DNA from: Acidobacteriota bacterium | GTDB lineage: Bacteria > Acidobacteriota > UBA6911 | DNA: 64,000 nucleotides | NCBI GenBank assembly: GCA_016934555.1 | Contig: JAFGSS010000146.1 | Span: 20,061-84,060 of the forward strand | Direction of reading: 5' to 3' | Part shown: piece after piece, positions 2,795-36,352 of the stretch | Layout: each line of letters opens with the position of its first letter | How positions within the stretch are numbered: position 1 is the stretch's first letter | Position numbers and translations under genes: made by a program | Notes under the pieces: model-generated | Told to the model about the DNA's origin: nothing | The model's database searches: none | What the model saw: the letters and a program-made list of their open reading frames with translations, nothing else

Positions 2795-5044
2795 TCAGGC
2801 CTCGTGCCCGAAAATCTCGGTGCGGAAGAAGCGGACCAGGGCCTCCTTGCGGCGGCGGTCCCCGGCGTGCAGGGGGATCAGGCTCCTGGGAGGCCACCGG
2901 AGCAGCGTCATTTCGTATTCCATCGTGAGCCCCCTGCCGGTAAGGTACCAGCAGAAGAGCAGCCCGAACAGCAGCCCCGGGGGGATGAATCCGCCGTCCT
3001 CGTTGATCGTGATGCCGAAGACCCCCGGATCGGCCTGGTCGGGGACCATGCGGGCCAGACGGAGGTAGGCCCTCAGCCCGTCATCGGAGAGGAAACTCCG
3101 CCTCTCGCCGGGGGGGCTGAGGACGATTTCGTAGCGGCGGGAGCCGTTCTGCCGGATCCAGCGGCGCTGGCGGACATAGCTCCCCAGCAGCGACTCGCCG
3201 AGCGCCACCAGGAGGTCGTCCCTGAGCCTGGAGGGATGGGATTGAAGATCCTCGTGCAGGTAGAGAAATCGGTCCTCCGGGCTGAAATATCCCAGCACGT
3301 TGTCCCAGTCGGTGCTCCGGTCCCAGTGGGCTGCGGGCCGGAGGCGCACCCCCCGGAAGAACTCCAGGTGGCGGCTCCGGATGTCGCGGTTGTCCCACGC
3401 GACCTTCATGAACAGGTCGCGCAGCCAGGCCGGCCTGAAGACCTTGCCGTCCAGGGCGGTCCGTATGGAATCGAGATGGCGGCAGAGGAGGGGGGCCCGG
3501 CCGCCGGCCGCCTGGGGCTCCCGTCCCTCCTCCTTCCGGCGGGGGGGCTCCCCGCTGCGGAGGTTCCACGCCGCCCCCCTTCCGGGATGGTGGTCGGTGT
3601 AGAGCAGGGTGCGGATGGCCAGGGCGAACCTGCCCGGGTCGTGATGAATAGCGAGCGTTGTCTCGGGCCGGTTCGGGGAGAAGAGTGTGGCTTCGACCGG
3701 GTGGACGCCCATGGCCTCCACCGCGCCGCGGTCGAGGTGGATGGGGCTCTTGCCCTCGAGCGCGTAATTGCGCAGGATGTTTCCCGGGATATGCTCCAGG
3801 TTGGCGCTCAGCACGACGTCGAACAGTCCCCGGATCCCCTGCGGCACATTCCGGTCATAGGCTTCGACCAGTTCCGAGACGAGGAACCCGCGCGCCTGGT
3901 TCTTGAGCGAAATGTCCGTTTCCCCCTCCTGGACCCAGGAGTTGGCCGCGAGAATTTTCAGGGCGCCGCGGTTGGCGCGGATGGCGGCGGTGATCGGCTC
4001 CAGCTGGAGGATGGGGATGATGCTGGTGTACAGGCTTCCGGGCGCGAGGAGGATCAGGTCCGCCTCCCGGATCGCCCTCGTCACCGCGGCGCCGACTACG
4101 GGCCGGCTGGTGAACAGGGCCGTCACCCTGTCCACCGGCGTGTCCCGGCGGGCGGATGCCGACTTGCTCTGCCCGTAGACCGCCACCCCGTTGGCATAGC
4201 GGAACTCCAGCTGCCCCGGCGTCGAGGTGGCCGGAAGGATACGACCGGTCGGGGCCCCGATCAGGGAGGCGATATGGTCGATGCCCCCCTGGATCTCTCC
4301 CAGCCCCGGCGGCCGGTCGATTCGTCCCCGCGCCGCCCGGAATATGGCGGCCGCGAGCAGCAGGTTTCCCAGGGCGTGGCCGGCCGGGCGGATGCCCAGG
4401 CCCGGCGTCGGCGCACAGGCGTAGGCGCCCAGCTCTGTCAGCGCCCCGGCAAGGCTTTCGGGGCACAACGGGCGCATGGCCCGGGGGAGGACGAGCAGGG
4501 GGTCGGCCGCCTGCCGGCGGTTTCGGGGATGCTCGTCGAATCGGTGATTGAACAGGCGGTGAACCAGCCGGACCAGCTCGAGCGCCCTGTCCCCGGAAAG
4601 CGCGTATGTGCGCTCGAGATTCCGGGGAAGGATATAGGAAAGCAGCAGCTTCCGGATATCGCCCACGCCGATCATGGGCAGCGACTGCAGCAGCCGTCCG
4701 GTCGATCCGCCGTCGTCGGTCGTGCAGACGATGGCGGTAAGATGCGGGAAGAACCGCTTCAGTCCCGCAAACGGATCGTCGGGCCAGCCCGGCGTCTGGG
4801 AGTTGCCCCCCACGATCGTGGACAGGCCCGTTCCCCCTCCCAGGACCGCGACCCGCGCATGCCGCGGGTCGAAGCGGAGTACCTCCTCCGCCTGCTTGTG
4901 CATCTCCTCGGCAGGCGTATCGGAGCCCTGCCCGGTCAGGAGGAATTCCACCAGGTTCTCGACCGGTGTCCGCGACCCGTCCGGGGGCCAGAATACCGCC
5001 CGGGGCCAGTCCGAAAAGAGATCTTTGTCTGCCACGCGACGCAT
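2795..5044 (-). CDS. YvcK/CofD-family (UPF0052, gluconeogenesis-factor-like) protein with long C-terminal extension
   Basis: VAVLGGGTGLSTIVGG ... LTAIVCTTDDGGSTGRL are the diagnostic UPF0052/YvcK motifs. Total length is 749 aa against a typical 320-450 aa. The C-terminal ~300 aa has no recognisable family. Confidence 0.8.
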   Translation of the reverse strand: MRRVADKDLFSDWPRAVFWPPDGSRTPVENLVEFLLTGQGSDTPAEEMHKQAEEVLRFDPRHARVAVLGGGTGLSTIVGGNSQTPGWPDDPFAGLKRFFPHLTAIVCTTDDGGSTGRLLQSLPMIGVGDIRKLLLSYILPRNLERTYALSGDRALELVRLVHRLFNHRFDEHPRNRRQAADPLLVLPRAMRPLCPESLAGALTELGAYACAPTPGLGIRPAGHALGNLLLAAAIFRAARGRIDRPPGLGEIQGGIDHIASLIGAPTGRILPATSTPGQLEFRYANGVAVYGQSKSASARRDTPVDRVTALFTSRPVVGAAVTRAIREADLILLAPGSLYTSIIPILQLEPITAAIRANRGALKILAANSWVQEGETDISLKNQARGFLVSELVEAYDRNVPQGIRGLFDVVLSANLEHIPGNILRNYALEGKSPIHLDRGAVEAMGVHPVEATLFSPNRPETTLAIHHDPGRFALAIRTLLYTDHHPGRGAAWNLRSGEPPRRKEEGREPQAAGGRAPLLCRHLDSIRTALDGKVFRPAWLRDLFMKVAWDNRDIRSRHLEFFRGVRLRPAAHWDRSTDWDNVLGYFSPEDRFLYLHEDLQSHPSRLRDDLLVALGESLLGSYVRQRRWIRQNGSRRYEIVLSPPGERRSFLSDDGLRAYLRLARMVPDQADPGVFGITINEDGGFIPPGLLFGLLFCWYLTGRGLTMEYEMTLLRWPPRSLIPLHAGDRRRKEALVRFFRTEIFGHEA

Positions 5045-5064: not shown

Positions 5065-5757
5065 TTACAGGATTCCCTGTTTGAAGGCGAAAGAGACGGC
5101 CTGCGCCTTGCTGTGCAGGTCGAGTTTCACCAGGATGTTCTGTATGTGATTTCTGGCCGTGTAATGGCTGATATCGAGCTTTCGGGCCAGCGCCTTGGTG
5201 GAAAGACCCTCGGCAAGCAGGGTCAGTACCTCGAATTCACGCGCCGACAGCGCCGCGAAGGCGGGCCGGCCTGCCTGCCTTGGAGGCTGGATGCCGCATC
5301 CTTCCGCCGGTCCGGCACAGGACGCGGCCGCGTTCGATCCGGAGGATTTCAGTTCCGCGAGAAAGCGGTCGAGGGCGAACTCCATCCTCCTGTCCCGGGT
5401 CACGTCGCGCAGGATGTGCGTGACCAGGGGGGACTCGGAACCGGTGCTCGACAGGAGGGTGACATTGATCCAGACCGGGCGGCCGGAGCTGTGGACGGCC
5501 TCGAGGTCGAAATTCCCCCGGGGCGTTCCTTCGACCCCGCTCCGGTGAACCGCGCAATCCTGGCCGCAGGGCCCCCCCCTGCCGGGCGCTTTCCCGGAAA
5601 TTACCTGGTAACAGCTCCGGTGGAGGGTGTCCGATTCGGGGATGCCCAGGATCTTTTCCGCCCCCTGGTTCCAGCGGACGACGCGCTTGTGGGCGTCGGT
5701 GATGAAGACCCCGTCGGCCGTGTTGCAGAGAATATCCAGATAGTCGCTCTGGCGCAT
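5065..5757 (-). CDS. PAS-domain / LuxR-type HTH transcriptional regulator
   Basis: Start was moved to ATG at 5757 (MRQSDYLDILCNTADGVFITDAHKRVVRWNQGAEKILG, PAS-like). The C-terminal LSAREFEVLTLLAEGLSTKALARKLDISHYTARNHIQNILVKLDL is a LuxR/GerE helix-turn-helix. The track's upstream 94 aa are low-complexity. Confidence 0.75.
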   Translation of the reverse strand: MRQSDYLDILCNTADGVFITDAHKRVVRWNQGAEKILGIPESDTLHRSCYQVISGKAPGRGGPCGQDCAVHRSGVEGTPRGNFDLEAVHSSGRPVWINVTLLSSTGSESPLVTHILRDVTRDRRMEFALDRFLAELKSSGSNAAASCAGPAEGCGIQPPRQAGRPAFAALSAREFEVLTLLAEGLSTKALARKLDISHYTARNHIQNILVKLDLHSKAQAVSFAFKQGIL

Positions 5758-5824
5758 GCCGCCATGCCCCCCGGCTGTGCTTCCATGCTCCCTGATCCCG
5801 GGCGCCGAGGCGCCCCGGGATTTT

Positions 5825-8800
5825 TCAGTGGATTCCACGGAATTTGGACTGAAGAATGGCGATCTTCTCCTGAAGGGTGGGTGCCGGCCCGTCGGAAGCC
5901 GGATCCTCGTTCCGGTCGGGCGCAGGGGTGTTCTCCGGCTTCCGGGAACCCTCCGGTTTTCGGGGGCCCCGTCTGCGGCCGGAGGCTTCCCGCGAACGGC
6001 CGGCCCCGGGCCGGTCCGGGCGGGAGGCGTTCCGGGCATCCGGACCGGTCCCGCCGCCGTTCTGCGCTTCTCGGGGCGTCGGGGGCGTCTTCCGCACGCG
6101 GCGCTGCGGCTTCTGACGTCGGCGGCCTCCTCCCAGGAGCGCCTTCATGGACAGCCCTATTCTCTGGGTTTCCATCTCGACCGAAAGGACCTTCACCTGC
6201 ACGATGTCGCCCACTTTCACCGCCTCGCGCGGATCGCGGATGAACCGGTTGGACATCTGGCTCAGGTGCACCAGCCCGTCCTGGCGGACCCCGATGTCCA
6301 CGAAGGCTCCGAAATTGGTGACATTGGTGACCGTCCCTTCCAACGTCATGCCCGGTTCAAGGTCCGACATCTGCCTGACGTCGGACCGGAACTTGGGAAC
6401 CCGGAACGCCTTTCTGGGATCCCGTCCGGGGTGCAGGAGCTCTTCCCGGATGTCGTCGAGGGTGGGGAGCCCGATTTCGTCGGTCACGAAATCATCGAGC
6501 TTCAGCGAGGTCACTTTTTCCCGGTTCTCCAGGAGTTCCCGGACCTCCCCGCCCTGGGCCGCGGCCATCTTTTCGACCACCGGATAGGCCTCGGGGTGAA
6601 TCGCGGTGCGGTCCAGCGGATGGTCCCCGTCCGGGATGCGCAGGAAACCGGCTGCCTGCCGGTAGCTGGCGTCATCCAGCCCGATTGCGGTTTTGAGCCC
6701 TTCGCGCGATCTGAAAAAATCCTGGGAGTTGCGGAAGCCCACGATCTTGCGGGCGAGCTTGTCATTGAGACCCGACACGTAGCGCAGGAGCGATTCCCTG
6801 GCCGTATTCGGGTTGACGCCCACGCTGTTGACGCAGTACTGGACCGTCTGTATCAACCCGCGGTGCAGCTCCTTCTGATCCACGTCATGCTGGTACTGTC
6901 CGACACCGATGAGCTTCGGGTCGATTTTCACCAGTTCGGCGAGCGGGTCCTGCAGTCTCCGTGCGAGACTCATGGCGCAGCGCAGCGACGCGCCGGAATC
7001 GGGCAGCTCCTCACGGGCGATGCGGGACGATGCGTAGATGGCTATGCCGGCGTCGTTGACGCTGGCGATCATGATATCGTTCGAGCCCGTCTCTGTAACG
7101 ATCTGTCGCAGGAGGTTTTCCAGTTCACGCGCCCCGGTTCCGGTCCCGAACGCCACCGCCCGCACCTTGTGCCGGGCGATAAGGTCCCGGAGGACGGTTC
7201 CGGCATCCCCAGCCGGCGCTACCGCCTCGGGCGCTGCCGCTTCGGGCGCTGCCGCTTCGGGCGCTGCCGCCTCAGGCGCTGCCGCCTCAGGCGCTGCCGC
7301 CTCAGGCGCTGCCGCCTCAGGCGCTGCCGCTTCGGGTGCTGTTGCCTCGGGCGCTGCAGCTTCGGGTGCCGTCGCCTCGGGCGCTGCAGCTTCGGGTGCC
7401 GTCGCCTCGGGCGCTGCGGCTTCGGGTGCCGTCGCCTCGGGCGCTGCAGCTTCGGGTGCCGTCGCCTCGGGCGCTGCGGCTTCGGGTGCCGTCGCCTCGG
7501 GTGCTACGGCTTCGGGTGCCGTCGCCTCGGGCGCTACGGCTTCGGGTGCCGTCGCCTCGGGCGCTGCAGCCTCGGGCGATACAGCCTCAGAAGCCGTTGC
7601 CTCGGGGGGAGCAGGTTCGGGCACTGCCGCATCAGGGACCGCTGTTTCCGTGTCGGCCCCGGCGTCGGCTGCCGGCGGGCATGGGACTTCATCCCGCCCT
7701 GACGAGATTTCAAGCTTGTCGAGCGCGGGGGCGTCACCCAGCACCGCACCGATCGGTCCGGCAAGCGATTCGGCTCGGGGAGCGGTGGGGGGCGCGGGGG
7801 AAGTCCCGGACCCGGGGGTGAACCGGACCCTGGCCCCTTCCAGAAACCTGCCTGTTTCATCGATCACGGCCACGCTGCATTCGTTTCCCTTGCCCCAATC
7901 CACCCCCATGGCGACGATCGGACCGGCCGGGGGAGACAAGAGCAGGTTGGCCAGGTTTTCCTGGAATATCCTGATGGCTTCCCGGTCGGCGCGTTCCTTG
8001 AGCTGGCTCCGGACTTCCGACTCGATCATCGGCCGCAGGATGCGGTTGTAGCTTTCACGGACGGCCGCCTCGATCACCGGGGTGAACAGGGACTCCCGGT
8101 CCCTGATGTGGGCCGACGCCAGGTATTCGATGGCCTTGGCGTTGTCCCCCTCGATGGAGGAGATGAGCACCCCCTCCTTGCACCCCCTGCGGATGGCCAG
8201 AACCCTGTGAGACGGGATCGTGGTGACAGGCTCCCTGCGGTCGTAGTACATCGCGTACTTGGTCTTCTGCCCGGCCTTGGCGGGGACCACGGAGGATGCC
8301 AGCAGGCCCTCGCTCCAGAGCATCTCGCGCAGTTTTTTGCGATGCTCGAAGTTTTCCGCCACGTATTCCGCGAGGATATCCACGACCCCTTCGAGCGCCT
8401 GCTCGCGGTTGAGGATGCCCTTGGAGGGATCGACAAAAACGTCGATGTGCTCCTCCGCGCTCCAGGCGTCGAGCTCCTGGTTCCAGAAGTATTCGGCCAG
8501 GGGCTGGAGCCCCTTTTCGATCGCTTCCATGGCGCGCGTCTTCTTCCGGGAGCGGAACTGGTGCTCGAGATCGGCCAGTTCGGCCCTGGAAAAGGAGCTT
8601 TCGATCTGCGTCCTGAGTTCCTCGGTCAGCCGTCCCTGTTCGGAAAGGGTCTTCGTCAGGGACGACCGCTGATCGAGCACCCCCCGGTAGTGGGCCATGC
8701 GGTCCTGGATGGCCCGGACTTTCGTTTCATCCATCCCCGCGGTGGCTTCTTTGCGGTAGCGGACGATGAAGGGACCGGTGAACCCGGTTTTCAGAAGGGT

Positions 8801-8872
8801 GACGACGGCCGAAACGGAAGCTTCGGGTATCGCGGTTTCCAGGGCAATTCTACCTATGATCGCAGCATCCAT
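5825..8872 (-). CDS. tex: Transcription accessory protein Tex (YqgF/RuvC-like plus HhH plus S1 domains) with internal APEAx repeat insertion
   Basis: The N-terminus MDAAIIGRIALE...GFTGPFIVRYRKE aligns with E. coli Tex (PFIARYRKE). An S1 domain lies near the C-terminus (GMTLEGTVTNVTNFGAFVDIG). About 30 copies of A-P-E-A-[AT] are inserted in the middle. Confidence 0.9.
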   Translation of the reverse strand: MDAAIIGRIALETAIPEASVSAVVTLLKTGFTGPFIVRYRKEATAGMDETKVRAIQDRMAHYRGVLDQRSSLTKTLSEQGRLTEELRTQIESSFSRAELADLEHQFRSRKKTRAMEAIEKGLQPLAEYFWNQELDAWSAEEHIDVFVDPSKGILNREQALEGVVDILAEYVAENFEHRKKLREMLWSEGLLASSVVPAKAGQKTKYAMYYDRREPVTTIPSHRVLAIRRGCKEGVLISSIEGDNAKAIEYLASAHIRDRESLFTPVIEAAVRESYNRILRPMIESEVRSQLKERADREAIRIFQENLANLLLSPPAGPIVAMGVDWGKGNECSVAVIDETGRFLEGARVRFTPGSGTSPAPPTAPRAESLAGPIGAVLGDAPALDKLEISSGRDEVPCPPAADAGADTETAVPDAAVPEPAPPEATASEAVSPEAAAPEATAPEAVAPEATAPEAVAPEATAPEAAAPEATAPEAAAPEATAPEAAAPEATAPEAAAPEATAPEAAAPEATAPEAAAPEAAAPEAAAPEAAAPEAAAPEAAAPEAAAPEAVAPAGDAGTVLRDLIARHKVRAVAFGTGTGARELENLLRQIVTETGSNDIMIASVNDAGIAIYASSRIAREELPDSGASLRCAMSLARRLQDPLAELVKIDPKLIGVGQYQHDVDQKELHRGLIQTVQYCVNSVGVNPNTARESLLRYVSGLNDKLARKIVGFRNSQDFFRSREGLKTAIGLDDASYRQAAGFLRIPDGDHPLDRTAIHPEAYPVVEKMAAAQGGEVRELLENREKVTSLKLDDFVTDEIGLPTLDDIREELLHPGRDPRKAFRVPKFRSDVRQMSDLEPGMTLEGTVTNVTNFGAFVDIGVRQDGLVHLSQMSNRFIRDPREAVKVGDIVQVKVLSVEMETQRIGLSMKALLGGGRRRQKPQRRVRKTPPTPREAQNGGGTGPDARNASRPDRPGAGRSREASGRRRGPRKPEGSRKPENTPAPDRNEDPASDGPAPTLQEKIAILQSKFRGIH
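7215..7640. repeat. Tandem 15-nt (5-codon) repeat, about 28-30 copies, inside tex
   Basis: Direct repeats gcttcgggcgctgcc / gcctcaggcgctgcc / gcttcgggtgccgtc... are read on the minus strand as APEAA/APEAT/APEAV. They also generate artefactual + strand ORFs (ASGAAASG..., LQLRVPSPRA...). Confidence 0.9.
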
Positions 8873-8957
8873 GGGCGCTATTCTTACCGAGGTGGAAGGC
8901 AGAATCAACCGGTAAATGCGGGCCCGGGCCGATTCGAAGCCGCACGGGCAGCCGCAT

Positions 8958-9758
8958 CTACCAGGGGAAGCCGATTCCGGGGGAGATTCCTATGGTCCTC
9001 CGGTTCGAGGCGGGCGGCTGCGGTTGCACGACTTGGGGGCGCCGCTCGGCGTTGCGGCCGGCATCGCGGATTTCATCGGCCGTGAATTCCAGCTCAAGGT
9101 AGGAGAACCGCAACGGTTTGAGCAATTCGAGATCGAACCGGGTGCCGGGCGCGATCACCAGGTCGCGCCCCCGCGAGAAGAGGACCGAGGCGACACCGGC
9201 GGCGGCCCCGGCCCCGGCGCCGACGGCGGCTCCCGATCCGCGGCCGATGACGGCCCCGATGATGGCCCCCTGCGCGGTGGTGCCCACGATCGTCCCGGCG
9301 TCCTCTCCCTCCGAGCCCGCGGCCTTGACCGTTTCGGAGCCGCGGTCGATGCTTTCGTCCCCCGGTCCGTGCAGGCCGCGGAAGGAGGCCGCCAGGTCGC
9401 GGCGGATCCCGTTGGGAAGCAGGATGTCGTCGAAGCGCAGCGCGATCCTCCCCTTGCCCCGGATCCGCCCGGGGCGCTCGACCATCGTCACGGTTCCCCT
9501 GATGGTGGATCCCCGGGGGATGACGAGCCGCTGATCGATCCAGACGGGGTAGGTGGTGTCGGCGTAGAAGGTGTCGCTTTCCTTGCTGCTGTGCGTGTTC
9601 AGGTAGTCGGACAGCGCGATGGGGATAACCGTCCCGGCGGGAACGACCATTTCCTCCAGGGGCCGGGTTGTGGCTTCCTCCCCCGGCGCCGCCTCCGCGG
9701 CCGTCAACCCGGACAGGAGCAGCAATGGAACCAGAGCGCGCCAACCCGATATCGGCAT
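8958..9758 (-). CDS. Secreted protein with signal peptide and Gly/Ala-rich (glycine-zipper-like) segment
   Basis: The N-terminus MPISGWRALVPLLLLSGLTAAEAAPG is a signal peptide. The middle segment GAIIGAVIGRGSGAAVGAGAGAAAGVA is Gly/Ala-rich. No confident family assignment. Confidence 0.6.
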   Translation of the reverse strand: MPISGWRALVPLLLLSGLTAAEAAPGEEATTRPLEEMVVPAGTVIPIALSDYLNTHSSKESDTFYADTTYPVWIDQRLVIPRGSTIRGTVTMVERPGRIRGKGRIALRFDDILLPNGIRRDLAASFRGLHGPGDESIDRGSETVKAAGSEGEDAGTIVGTTAQGAIIGAVIGRGSGAAVGAGAGAAAGVASVLFSRGRDLVIAPGTRFDLELLKPLRFSYLELEFTADEIRDAGRNAERRPQVVQPQPPASNRRTIGISPGIGFPW

Positions 9759-35572: not shown

Positions 35573-36352
35573 TCAGCGGATGAATCCCCGCTCGGAGCTT
35601 TCGATGAAGGTGACCAGTAGCGCCACTTCGGGCGCCGACCACTCCTGTTCCCGCAATTTTGCCAGCGCTTCCCCCGTGTTCATCCGCGAGCGGAAGCAGA
35701 TGCGGTATGCATGCTTCAGTTCGAGGATGGTCTCCGCGGAAAAGCCCTTGCGCTCGAGCCCGAGGGCGTTGATGCCGTAGATCCGGGCGTGGTTCCGTTC
35801 GCCCACCGTCTTGACGTAGGGGAGGGCGTCCCGGGTGACGACGGAAAAACCCCCGATGAAGGCGTGGGGGCCCACCCGGCAGAACTGGTGTACGGCGGAG
35901 AAGGCGCCCACGGTGGCGTGATCGCCGACGGTGACGTGACCGGCCAGGGTGGCGGCGTTGGCCATGATGACGCCGTCCCCCACCACGCAGTCGTGCGCCA
36001 CGTGGCTGTAGGCCATGGCGAAGTTGCCGCTGCCGATCACCGTGACGCCGTGCCCCCCCCGTGTGCCCCGGTGGAGGCTGACGAATTCGCGGAAGACGTT
36101 GTCGTCCCCTATCCGGAGGAAGGTTTCCTCCCCCCGGTATTTCAGGTCCTGGGGGTCGGCGCCGACCGAACAGTGGCTGTAGAAGCGGCATCTCTCCCCC
36201 ACGGTCGTGTGCCCGTGGATGACGACGTGGGAATCCAGGACGCAACCGGCCCCCAGGCGCGTCTGGGGGCCGAGGACACAGTAGGGGCCGATGAGGGCGT
36301 CGGGGGCGATGTCGCACGAACGGTCAACGATGGCTGTCGGGTGTATGGGCAT
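35573..36352 (-). CDS. lpxA: Acyl-ACP--UDP-N-acetylglucosamine O-acyltransferase LpxA
   Basis: MPIHPTAIVD followed by hexapeptide (left-handed beta-helix) repeats and the C-terminal LpxA helical domain. Start is ATG at 36352. Confidence 0.9.
   Translation of the reverse strand: MPIHPTAIVDRSCDIAPDALIGPYCVLGPQTRLGAGCVLDSHVVIHGHTTVGERCRFYSHCSVGADPQDLKYRGEETFLRIGDDNVFREFVSLHRGTRGGHGVTVIGSGNFAMAYSHVAHDCVVGDGVIMANAATLAGHVTVGDHATVGAFSAVHQFCRVGPHAFIGGFSVVTRDALPYVKTVGERNHARIYGINALGLERKGFSAETILELKHAYRICFRSRMNTGEALAKLREQEWSAPEVALLVTFIESSERGFIR

Follow-up and report, generated by a model that had tools for sequence, protein, structure and literature searches.

The 64,000-nt window analysed here (contig JAFGSS010000146.1 of the Acidobacteriota assembly GCA_016934555.1) contains a tex (yhgF-family) gene whose product carries, inside its YqgF domain, a 206-residue polyanionic insertion that is rich in Ala, Pro and Glu and predicted to be disordered from its composition and from structural modelling. 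In the genus of the window, an in-frame array of 15- and 30-nt repeats supplies most of the length of this insertion, 120–140 aa, and not the 170–190 aa that a first-pass annotation, made from the sequence alone, had assigned to it. Comparison with homologous sequences shows that the insertion is an old feature of a whole acidobacterial clade, in which its presence, acidity and composition are conserved and its sequence and length are not. Judged from the same alignments, the insertion is older than the repeat, which is only its current filling.

The gene lies on the minus strand, within an open reading frame (ORF) at 5825..8908 that opens at a TTG codon. Because most homologues begin MDAAIIGRIA, 351 residues ahead of the insertion, the ATG at 8872 is likely to be the start of tex, giving a coding sequence of 1015 codons plus the stop (5825..8872). 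Six Pfam domains, Tex_N, Tex_central_region, Tex_YqgF, HHH_3, HHH_9 and S1, were matched in this order, all above their gathering scores; the Tex_YqgF match covered only the C-terminal two-thirds of the domain (profile positions 42–126), because the insertion splits it. A phmmer search of the Protein Data Bank (PDB) retrieved Pseudomonas aeruginosa Tex (2OCE/3BZC, E ~5e-161) in two segments, one on either side of the insertion, and a Foldseek search with an AlphaFold2 model, built on 104 homologues, returned 3BZC, 3BZK and 2OCE as best matches (target-normalised TM-scores of 0.70–0.74, E=4e-50), followed by chains of Spt6. Sequence and model together make membership of the Tex/YhgF family secure, as the first-pass annotation had proposed. 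Identity with Spt6 itself was rejected: there was no SH2 match in Pfam, the N-terminus starts directly with Tex_N, where Spt6 has the acidic region that contains its Spn1/Iws1-binding segment, and the acidic region of the window protein is within YqgF. An identical protein, also derived from a metagenome-assembled genome (MAG), is deposited at NCBI from one contig as 'S1 RNA-binding domain-containing protein [Acidobacteria bacterium]'. Tex is not modelled in NCBIfam, where the protein gave only sub-threshold S1 matches, and this probably accounts for the vague public names of Tex proteins; tex genes are prone to misannotation under that label or as '30S ribosomal protein S1'.

The insertion spans residues 352–557 (7202..7819), as delimited by anchor alignment, composition and the predicted local distance difference test (pLDDT), and occupies the loop between β3 and α1 of the RNase-H-like YqgF domain. 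Alignment with P. aeruginosa Tex pairs query residues 29–361 with residues 23–360 and query residues 571–961 with residues 374–766 (query numbering counted from the TTG codon, P. aeruginosa numbering as in 2OCE), so that ~196 extra residues, the excess of the insertion over the normal loop, fall between residues 360 and 374 of the P. aeruginosa protein (breaks at 359/360 and 373/374). In the AlphaFold2 model, strands 321–326, 331–337 and 343–350 precede the insertion. They form β1–β3 (residues 321–350, 7823..7912), including Asp325 of the GVDWG segment. Helix α1 (557–568) and strand β4 (572–575) follow the insertion, with a helix at 581–595 and a strand at 601–604 in the remainder of the domain (approximately residues 557–660, 6893..7204). 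Residues 354–554 were modelled as coil with no secondary structure and a pLDDT of ~30. Alignment and model thus support the earlier placement of the array inside YqgF and the suggestion of a large disordered loop emerging from a conserved fold. Gly323 and Asp325 are invariant alignment columns, and the conserved VNDAG segment contributes Asp607, which is nearly invariant (≥90% of sequences). In RNase-H-like folds, nucleic acid is held in an acidic cleft, and α1 begins at its edge.

The composition of the insertion is strongly biased (A 39%, P 19%, E 15%, G 3.9%, R 1.0%, K 0.5%), with a net charge of −35; the Tex core contains 6.8% G and 9.4% R, in a genome of 67% GC. The first 64 residues (352–415, 7628..7819), delimited by reading the sequence codon by codon, are non-repetitive and recognisable in homologues P0002–P0007. 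An intein or mobile-element insertion was rejected: residues 352–557 had no Pfam match, are of low complexity and were modelled as coil. The segment has the attributes of a lineage-specific disordered insertion, being located within a conserved domain, predicted to be disordered, compositionally biased and restricted to particular lineages.

To define its distribution we used the best 120 homologues, all from Acidobacteriota MAGs and 54–100% identical to the window protein. Every one of the 120 has 53–290 aa at exactly the same site. These segments are rich in A, P, E, S and T (pooled: A 23%, P 16%, E 15%, R 1.1%, K 2.4%, G 2.8%), and their net charge ranges from −9 to −48, with a median of −25 (119 proteins). 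Beyond the nearest relatives of the window protein they are non-repetitive and cannot be aligned with each other. The two ends of the loop are nonetheless conserved across the clade, as T-P-x-P-K ... [D/E]-x-[D/E]-A (normal loops read, for instance, TEPKKDLEGA), which places the additional residues centrally within an ancestral 10-residue loop. Three close relatives, L003, P0122 and P0123, have no insertion.

Alignment of distant members of the clade revealed one further element, a hydrophobic motif of ~19 residues, E-S-A-A-I-x-[DE]-x-P-x-x-E-P-L-E-x-P. An ungapped scoring matrix built solely from these distant members picked IGAVLGDAPALDKLEISSG (residues 374–392, 7697..7753) in the window insertion, with a score reached by 8 of 1000 shuffled sequences, and results in sister groups were similar. 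We regard IGAVLGDAPALDKLEISSG, with moderate confidence, as the putative window counterpart of the motif. AlphaFold2 did not model the region as structured. A hidden Markov model (HMM) of the motif was uninformative, the motif being short and compositionally biased: hmmsearch of the insertions found no matches even for real sequences. In the genus of the window the motif is upstream of the acidic bulk and in most other members downstream of it, while the next sister species has, on the upstream side of the motif, an expansion of a different repeat of 10 aa, TEAATPEADA. This variable order suggests that lineages differ in the side of the motif on which they have rebuilt the acidic bulk.

Tandem Repeats Finder, the check proposed in the first-pass annotation, reported the window array at 7223..7576 (period 30, 11.8 copies, 92% matches, no indels, score 498). 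No other tandem repeat in the window is substantial; the runner-up, an 18-nt repeat of 2.8 copies with 78% matches at 35905..35954, scores 65. The 15-nt unit GCAGCGCCCGAGGCG occurs 15 times with up to two mismatches, always within the array, as compared with 1.4 occurrences expected by chance, and none of 100 shuffled sequences reached 15. Codon-by-codon reading identified 24 clean x-[A/S]-P-E-A units (residues 431–550, 7582..7223), preceded by three degenerate units, AVPEP, APPEA and TASEA (residues 416–430, 7583..7627), and followed by one more (residues 551–555). This total of ~28 agrees with the 28–30 copies previously estimated, and the limits previously given for the array, 7215..7640, are correct to within ~10–15 nt.

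The array comprises two sub-arrays of different periodicity. In the first (residues 436–515, 7328..7567), a 30-nt dimer, AAPEA or VAPEA followed by TAPEA, is repeated eight times, and in the second (residues 516–550, 7223..7327) a 15-nt AAPEA monomer is repeated seven times, as four identical copies of GCAGCGCCTGAGGCG, two of GCAGCGCCCGAAGCG and one of GCAGCGCCCGAGGCG. Apart from a single Ser, the units differ only synonymously at positions 2–5, whereas position 1 can hold A, T or V, in agreement with the mostly synonymous or conservative variation noted before. GC content at third codon positions is 0.625 in the array (7223..7582), versus 0.82 in the remainder of tex, and GCA and GAA codons are frequent in the units.

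We discarded several other interpretations of the array. A phase-variable contingency locus was rejected since units of 15 and 30 nt keep all alleles in frame, and slippage would alter length and not frame. The Tex protein has no Pentapeptide match and is not a pentapeptide-repeat protein (PF00805); the lone match to this family, of 24 bits, is to an antisense ORF (5756..7702, plus strand) and is a by-product of the 15-nt periodicity. Neither this ORF nor a second antisense ORF (7038..8051, plus strand) belongs to a credible family. Exact-string literature searches for APEA-type repeats found nothing. Taken alone, the APEA array is an ordinary product of slippage.

Internal duplication is not confined to the window array: in 32 of 115 distinct insertions, internal repeats, at offsets of 5–60 aa, were stronger than in all 100 shuffled versions. 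The relatives L084 and L085, with Tex proteins of 986 and 916 aa, are 99.9% identical in tex outside the array and 99.9–100% in the flanks, and their arrays differ by 210 nt; L082 and L083, with flanks that match completely, have arrays differing by 288 nt. In a sister species, insertion length varies between 105 and 195 aa by 10-aa increments, the proteins being otherwise 98.9–100% identical, and two partial sequences have insertions of 95 and 255 aa. A metagenome scan with the flank of the window array recovered no further allele of the window species, only a P0003-type allele. Copy-number variation, which the first-pass annotation had anticipated, is thus evident among close relatives. Higher-order units differ as well: among L082–L085, one array contains a 90-nt repeat of six units and another nine copies of APETAVPEAA, and the window array has its own make-up of dimer and monomer blocks. 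Because near-identical genomes hold arrays of different units and copy numbers, these comparisons show a segment that grows and shrinks by whole units, and they point to replication slippage or unequal recombination as the process.

Outside the clade, the loop is usually short. Among the matches listed from reference genomes, 79 Tex proteins, mostly non-acidobacterial, have a β3–α1 loop of 8–11 aa; they represent many phyla and include Bryobacterales, Solibacteraceae and Terriglobia. We also surveyed the family through its 150 best cluster representatives, ~140 of which could be scored for loop length. The loop measures 10 aa in 91 of them and 5–17 aa in nearly all others, but 13 full-length representatives (cut-off ≥50 aa) have insertions of 88–343 aa in the same loop, most of them acidic and of low complexity, and two partial representatives have 79 and 233 aa there. 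In a rough neighbour-joining tree of the core, the bearers of insertions are split among at least five groups, and proteins with normal loops lie between them. Near the window clade this tree is distorted by P0136 (670 aa), with a normal 10-aa loop and a C-terminal third that is Arg/Gly-rich out-of-frame sequence, probably a frameshifted gene call. The scoring matrix did not find the acidobacterial motif in the other insertion-bearing groups. Since the motif is absent from these groups and the inserted sequences are unrelated, the insertions are likely to have had several independent origins. The longest, of 343 aa and with a charge of −58, is in the 1226-aa Tex of Kolteria novifilia Pan216, a cultured planctomycete (P0212, QDU60909.1, annotated as '30S ribosomal protein S1'). 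Another family representative, the distant Tex P0131 (965 aa), contains an independent array of ~14 copies of an 8-aa repeat, DGDQSASP/AGDQSASL, in the same YqgF loop.

The S1 RNA-binding domain of the window protein (residues 838–910, 6143..6361; Pfam S1 E=1.1e-21, AlphaFold2 strands within 843–909) is highly conserved among homologues and predicted to bind nucleic acid. It is followed by a basic tail of 104 aa (residues 912–1015, 5828..6139; net charge +14, R 18%, P 14%, G 13.5%), which matches the Arg/Pro-rich tail of ~100 aa previously noticed. Composition and the AlphaFold2 model, with pLDDT <50 over residues 911–995, suggest that it is disordered, except for a terminal helix, PTLQEKIAILQSKFRGIH (residues 1000–1010, 5843..5875), modelled with a pLDDT of ~80. 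Complete tails, present in 119 of the 120 clade homologues, measure ~95–114 aa, and the helix motif is nearly invariant within the clade, with L1000, E1002–L1007, F1011 and I1014 as invariant alignment columns. A related amphipathic terminus occurs in Tex of Pseudomonas (NNAMAALFANAKQLKKK), Bryobacterales and Bacteroidia, and the helix motif may be a general feature of Tex that has not been described before.

We favour, at somewhat better than even chances, the interpretation that the insertion is a maintained polyanionic disordered arm, resized by slippage, with an electrostatic or autoinhibitory role or a role in docking. Selection would keep a long, flexible and acidic arm beside the YqgF cleft and the S1 and helix-hairpin-helix surfaces, and, the sequence itself being free to vary, tandem repeats would be the fastest way to rebuild or retune it. 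We think an electrostatic effect most likely: the arm would be an intramolecular competitor of RNA or DNA at the basic S1 domain, the tail and the cleft, so that the protein is autoinhibited or non-specific ligands are screened out. Instead of this, or besides it, the arm could offer its embedded motif to a partner. A precedent is the acidic disordered N-terminus of Spt6, the eukaryotic homologue, on which this mechanism is modelled. Several observations weigh against this interpretation. Insertion length ranges fivefold within the clade, down to 53 aa in a member that also lacks the motif. The AlphaFold2 model does not dock the arm or the motif anywhere, and the molecular role of Tex/YhgF is itself unresolved (PMC10201417). 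The relatives without insertion already carry the long basic tail and the terminal helix, and the extension of the tail therefore predates the insertion or is independent of it. Family representatives with an insertion have a median tail of 151 aa and +15, versus 49.5 aa and +5 in the rest (Mann–Whitney p ~1e-5, with kinship ignored), but insertion and tail charge are not correlated within the clade (r = −0.12), which disfavours strict charge matching.

The strongest alternative, which we consider possible although clearly less probable, is that the β3–α1 loop is simply permissive and collects drifting, slippage-prone DNA, so that the arm has no function. The unconserved sequence, the range of 53–290 aa, the fast turnover of repeat units, the short insertion that has no motif, the lack of covariation with tail charge and the modelled coil would all be expected of such neutral filler. 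However, the insertion is retained in all 120 homologues, down to 54% identity, and it is always acidic and nearly devoid of Arg, Lys and Gly, although neutral expansions at 67% GC should often be rich in Gly or Arg. The acidity appears to be selected, since GC pressure alone would favour these two residues as well. Furthermore, the independently expanded units xAPEA, APETAVPEAA, TEAATPEADA and DGDQSASP all contain acidic residues and lack basic ones, a motif is conserved inside the insertion, and chemically similar insertions arose at the same loop in unrelated Tex lineages. Persistence in the clade, constant acidity, the embedded motif and the repeated appearance of similar arms at this loop thus disfavour pure neutrality.

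A broader form of the favoured interpretation is that several phyla independently placed an acidic arm in this Tex loop, converging on the architecture of Spt6, with the arm gating access of RNA or DNA to the YqgF/S1 surfaces or recruiting a basic partner by means of its motif, and slippage tuning the gate from strain to strain. We put this forward as speculative and rather unlikely in its entirety. Besides the Acidobacteriota clade, it may apply to Planctomycetota, Kolteria among them, and to three or more other lineages.

It is also improbable, if slightly less easily dismissed than the remaining alternatives, that the array or its copy number is an artefact of short-read metagenome assembly and that the apparent strain variation reflects repeat collapse. 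The window derives from a MAG, its protein is known from one contig only, and an array of 360–420 nt exceeds typical short reads, making it a likely site of assembly collapse. In L082 and L083, the flanks are 100% identical and the arrays differ by 288 nt, the pattern expected of collapse; in this pair the 3' 1370 nt of tex are 100% identical and the first 1050 nt just 96.4%, a divergence that could be due to strain recombination or chimeric assembly. Nevertheless, an in-frame insertion is present in each of the 120 closest homologues, which derive from numerous independent assemblies and sources, and insertion-bearing homologues are found on contigs of 6.2 and 6.9 Mb. Additionally, a 216-aa allele with idiosyncratic variant units is identical in three separate assemblies, and the variant units of the window array provide it with an internal structure that can be assembled. 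The existence of the insertion is therefore secure, and the exact count of 24 + 4 units is an assembly figure.

Two further proposals concern the function of the arm. The first, that the −35 arm and the +14 tail act as blocks that phase-separate Tex with itself or with RNA, has in its favour the presence of separate acidic and basic disordered blocks in the window protein and the fact that disordered insertions are widespread in Rho and can drive phase separation (PMC11347177). We consider it improbable. Ala/Pro/Glu polyanions lacking aromatic residues or Arg are generally solubilising and not cohesive. The least probable proposal, to which we give very little credence, is an Spt6-like chaperone arm that binds basic nucleoid-associated or ribosomal proteins and passes them to nucleic acid, in convergence with the histone-chaperone role of Spt6. 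In its favour, the core of Spt6 has its bacterial homologue in Tex, the disordered acidic part of Spt6 matters for function (PMC9177984) and the conserved motif could be a docking site; against it, that part of Spt6 is N-terminal and outside YqgF, our literature search found no link of Acidobacteriota to bacterial histones, and the gene neighbours suggest no partner.

These neighbours, all on the minus strand between 2795 and 9758, are a TrbI-like/Gly-zipper gene (8958..9758) upstream of tex, and a PAS-LuxR/GerE regulator and a CofD-family gene (2795..5044) downstream. The order is conserved (L081, L084 and L085), down to relatives whose Tex is just 58% identical; in L082 and L083, no TrbI-like gene was called upstream of tex in the locus. 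The regulator was listed as an ORF of 324 aa (5065..6039) overlapping tex at its 3' end. The Pfam match and the genes called in relatives indicate that it is really a PAS-GerE protein of 230 aa starting at 5757, after a gap of 67 nt past the tex stop. The CofD-family protein has 749 aa, with the CofD domain at residues 65–454 and ~300 C-terminal residues that have no Pfam match. Elsewhere, the window contains a full-length match to the cobalamin riboswitch aptamer (RF00174; 55676..55883, minus strand; 98 bits versus a gathering score of 31.5) and no rRNA gene in its 64 kb.

Few bacterial RNA-binding proteins are as widely conserved as Tex/YhgF, and a loop that repeatedly gains a polyanionic arm would mark a functionally sensitive surface. 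The locus illustrates how a disordered region can conserve charge and composition while tandem duplication rebuilds its sequence. We regard the recurrent acidic arm at one loop of Tex as modestly interesting and experimentally tractable, since the loop provides natural variants with and without an arm, together with a cultured organism, Kolteria novifilia, for experiments.

The searchable literature yielded no account of an insertion in Tex. Several known systems have a related architecture. The window protein shares its fold and six-domain architecture with P. aeruginosa Tex (PA5201; 3BZC, 3BZK, 2OCE) and E. coli YhgF, as well as a basic tail that closes with a short amphipathic helix motif, but its β3–α1 loop has 206 aa instead of 10, and its tail has 104 aa as compared with ~50–55 aa in Pseudomonas Tex. 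Kolteria novifilia Tex shares with it a large acidic disordered insertion at exactly this loop and a long basic tail, of 151 aa. The Kolteria insertion, however, is of unrelated sequence, opens with a poly-Lys/Arg stretch, lacks the acidobacterial motif and belongs elsewhere in the Tex tree, and probably represents an independent acquisition. Spt6 has a homologous core and, likewise, a long acidic disordered region on that core, which was shown experimentally to fold back on it and to autoinhibit binding of nucleic acid and of the C-terminal domain (CTD) (PMC9177984). Spt6 differs in that it has a tandem SH2 domain, lacks a comparable basic tail and carries its acidic region at the N-terminus, outside YqgF; the two acidic regions are not homologous, and any similarity would be convergent. 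The closest known kind is that of the disordered insertions of atypical Rho factors from Actinomycetota, Bacteroidota and the PVC group, which are likewise lineage-specific, compositionally biased insertions within a conserved domain of a housekeeping RNA-binding transcription factor. They vary in length, arose repeatedly and are sometimes rich in Ala and Pro, and the one in Bacteroides Rho has been shown to phase-separate (PMC11347177). In Rho the inserted segments show enrichment of Arg, Asp, Asn and Gly; the one in Tex, by contrast, is strongly acidic and nearly devoid of Arg, Lys and Gly.

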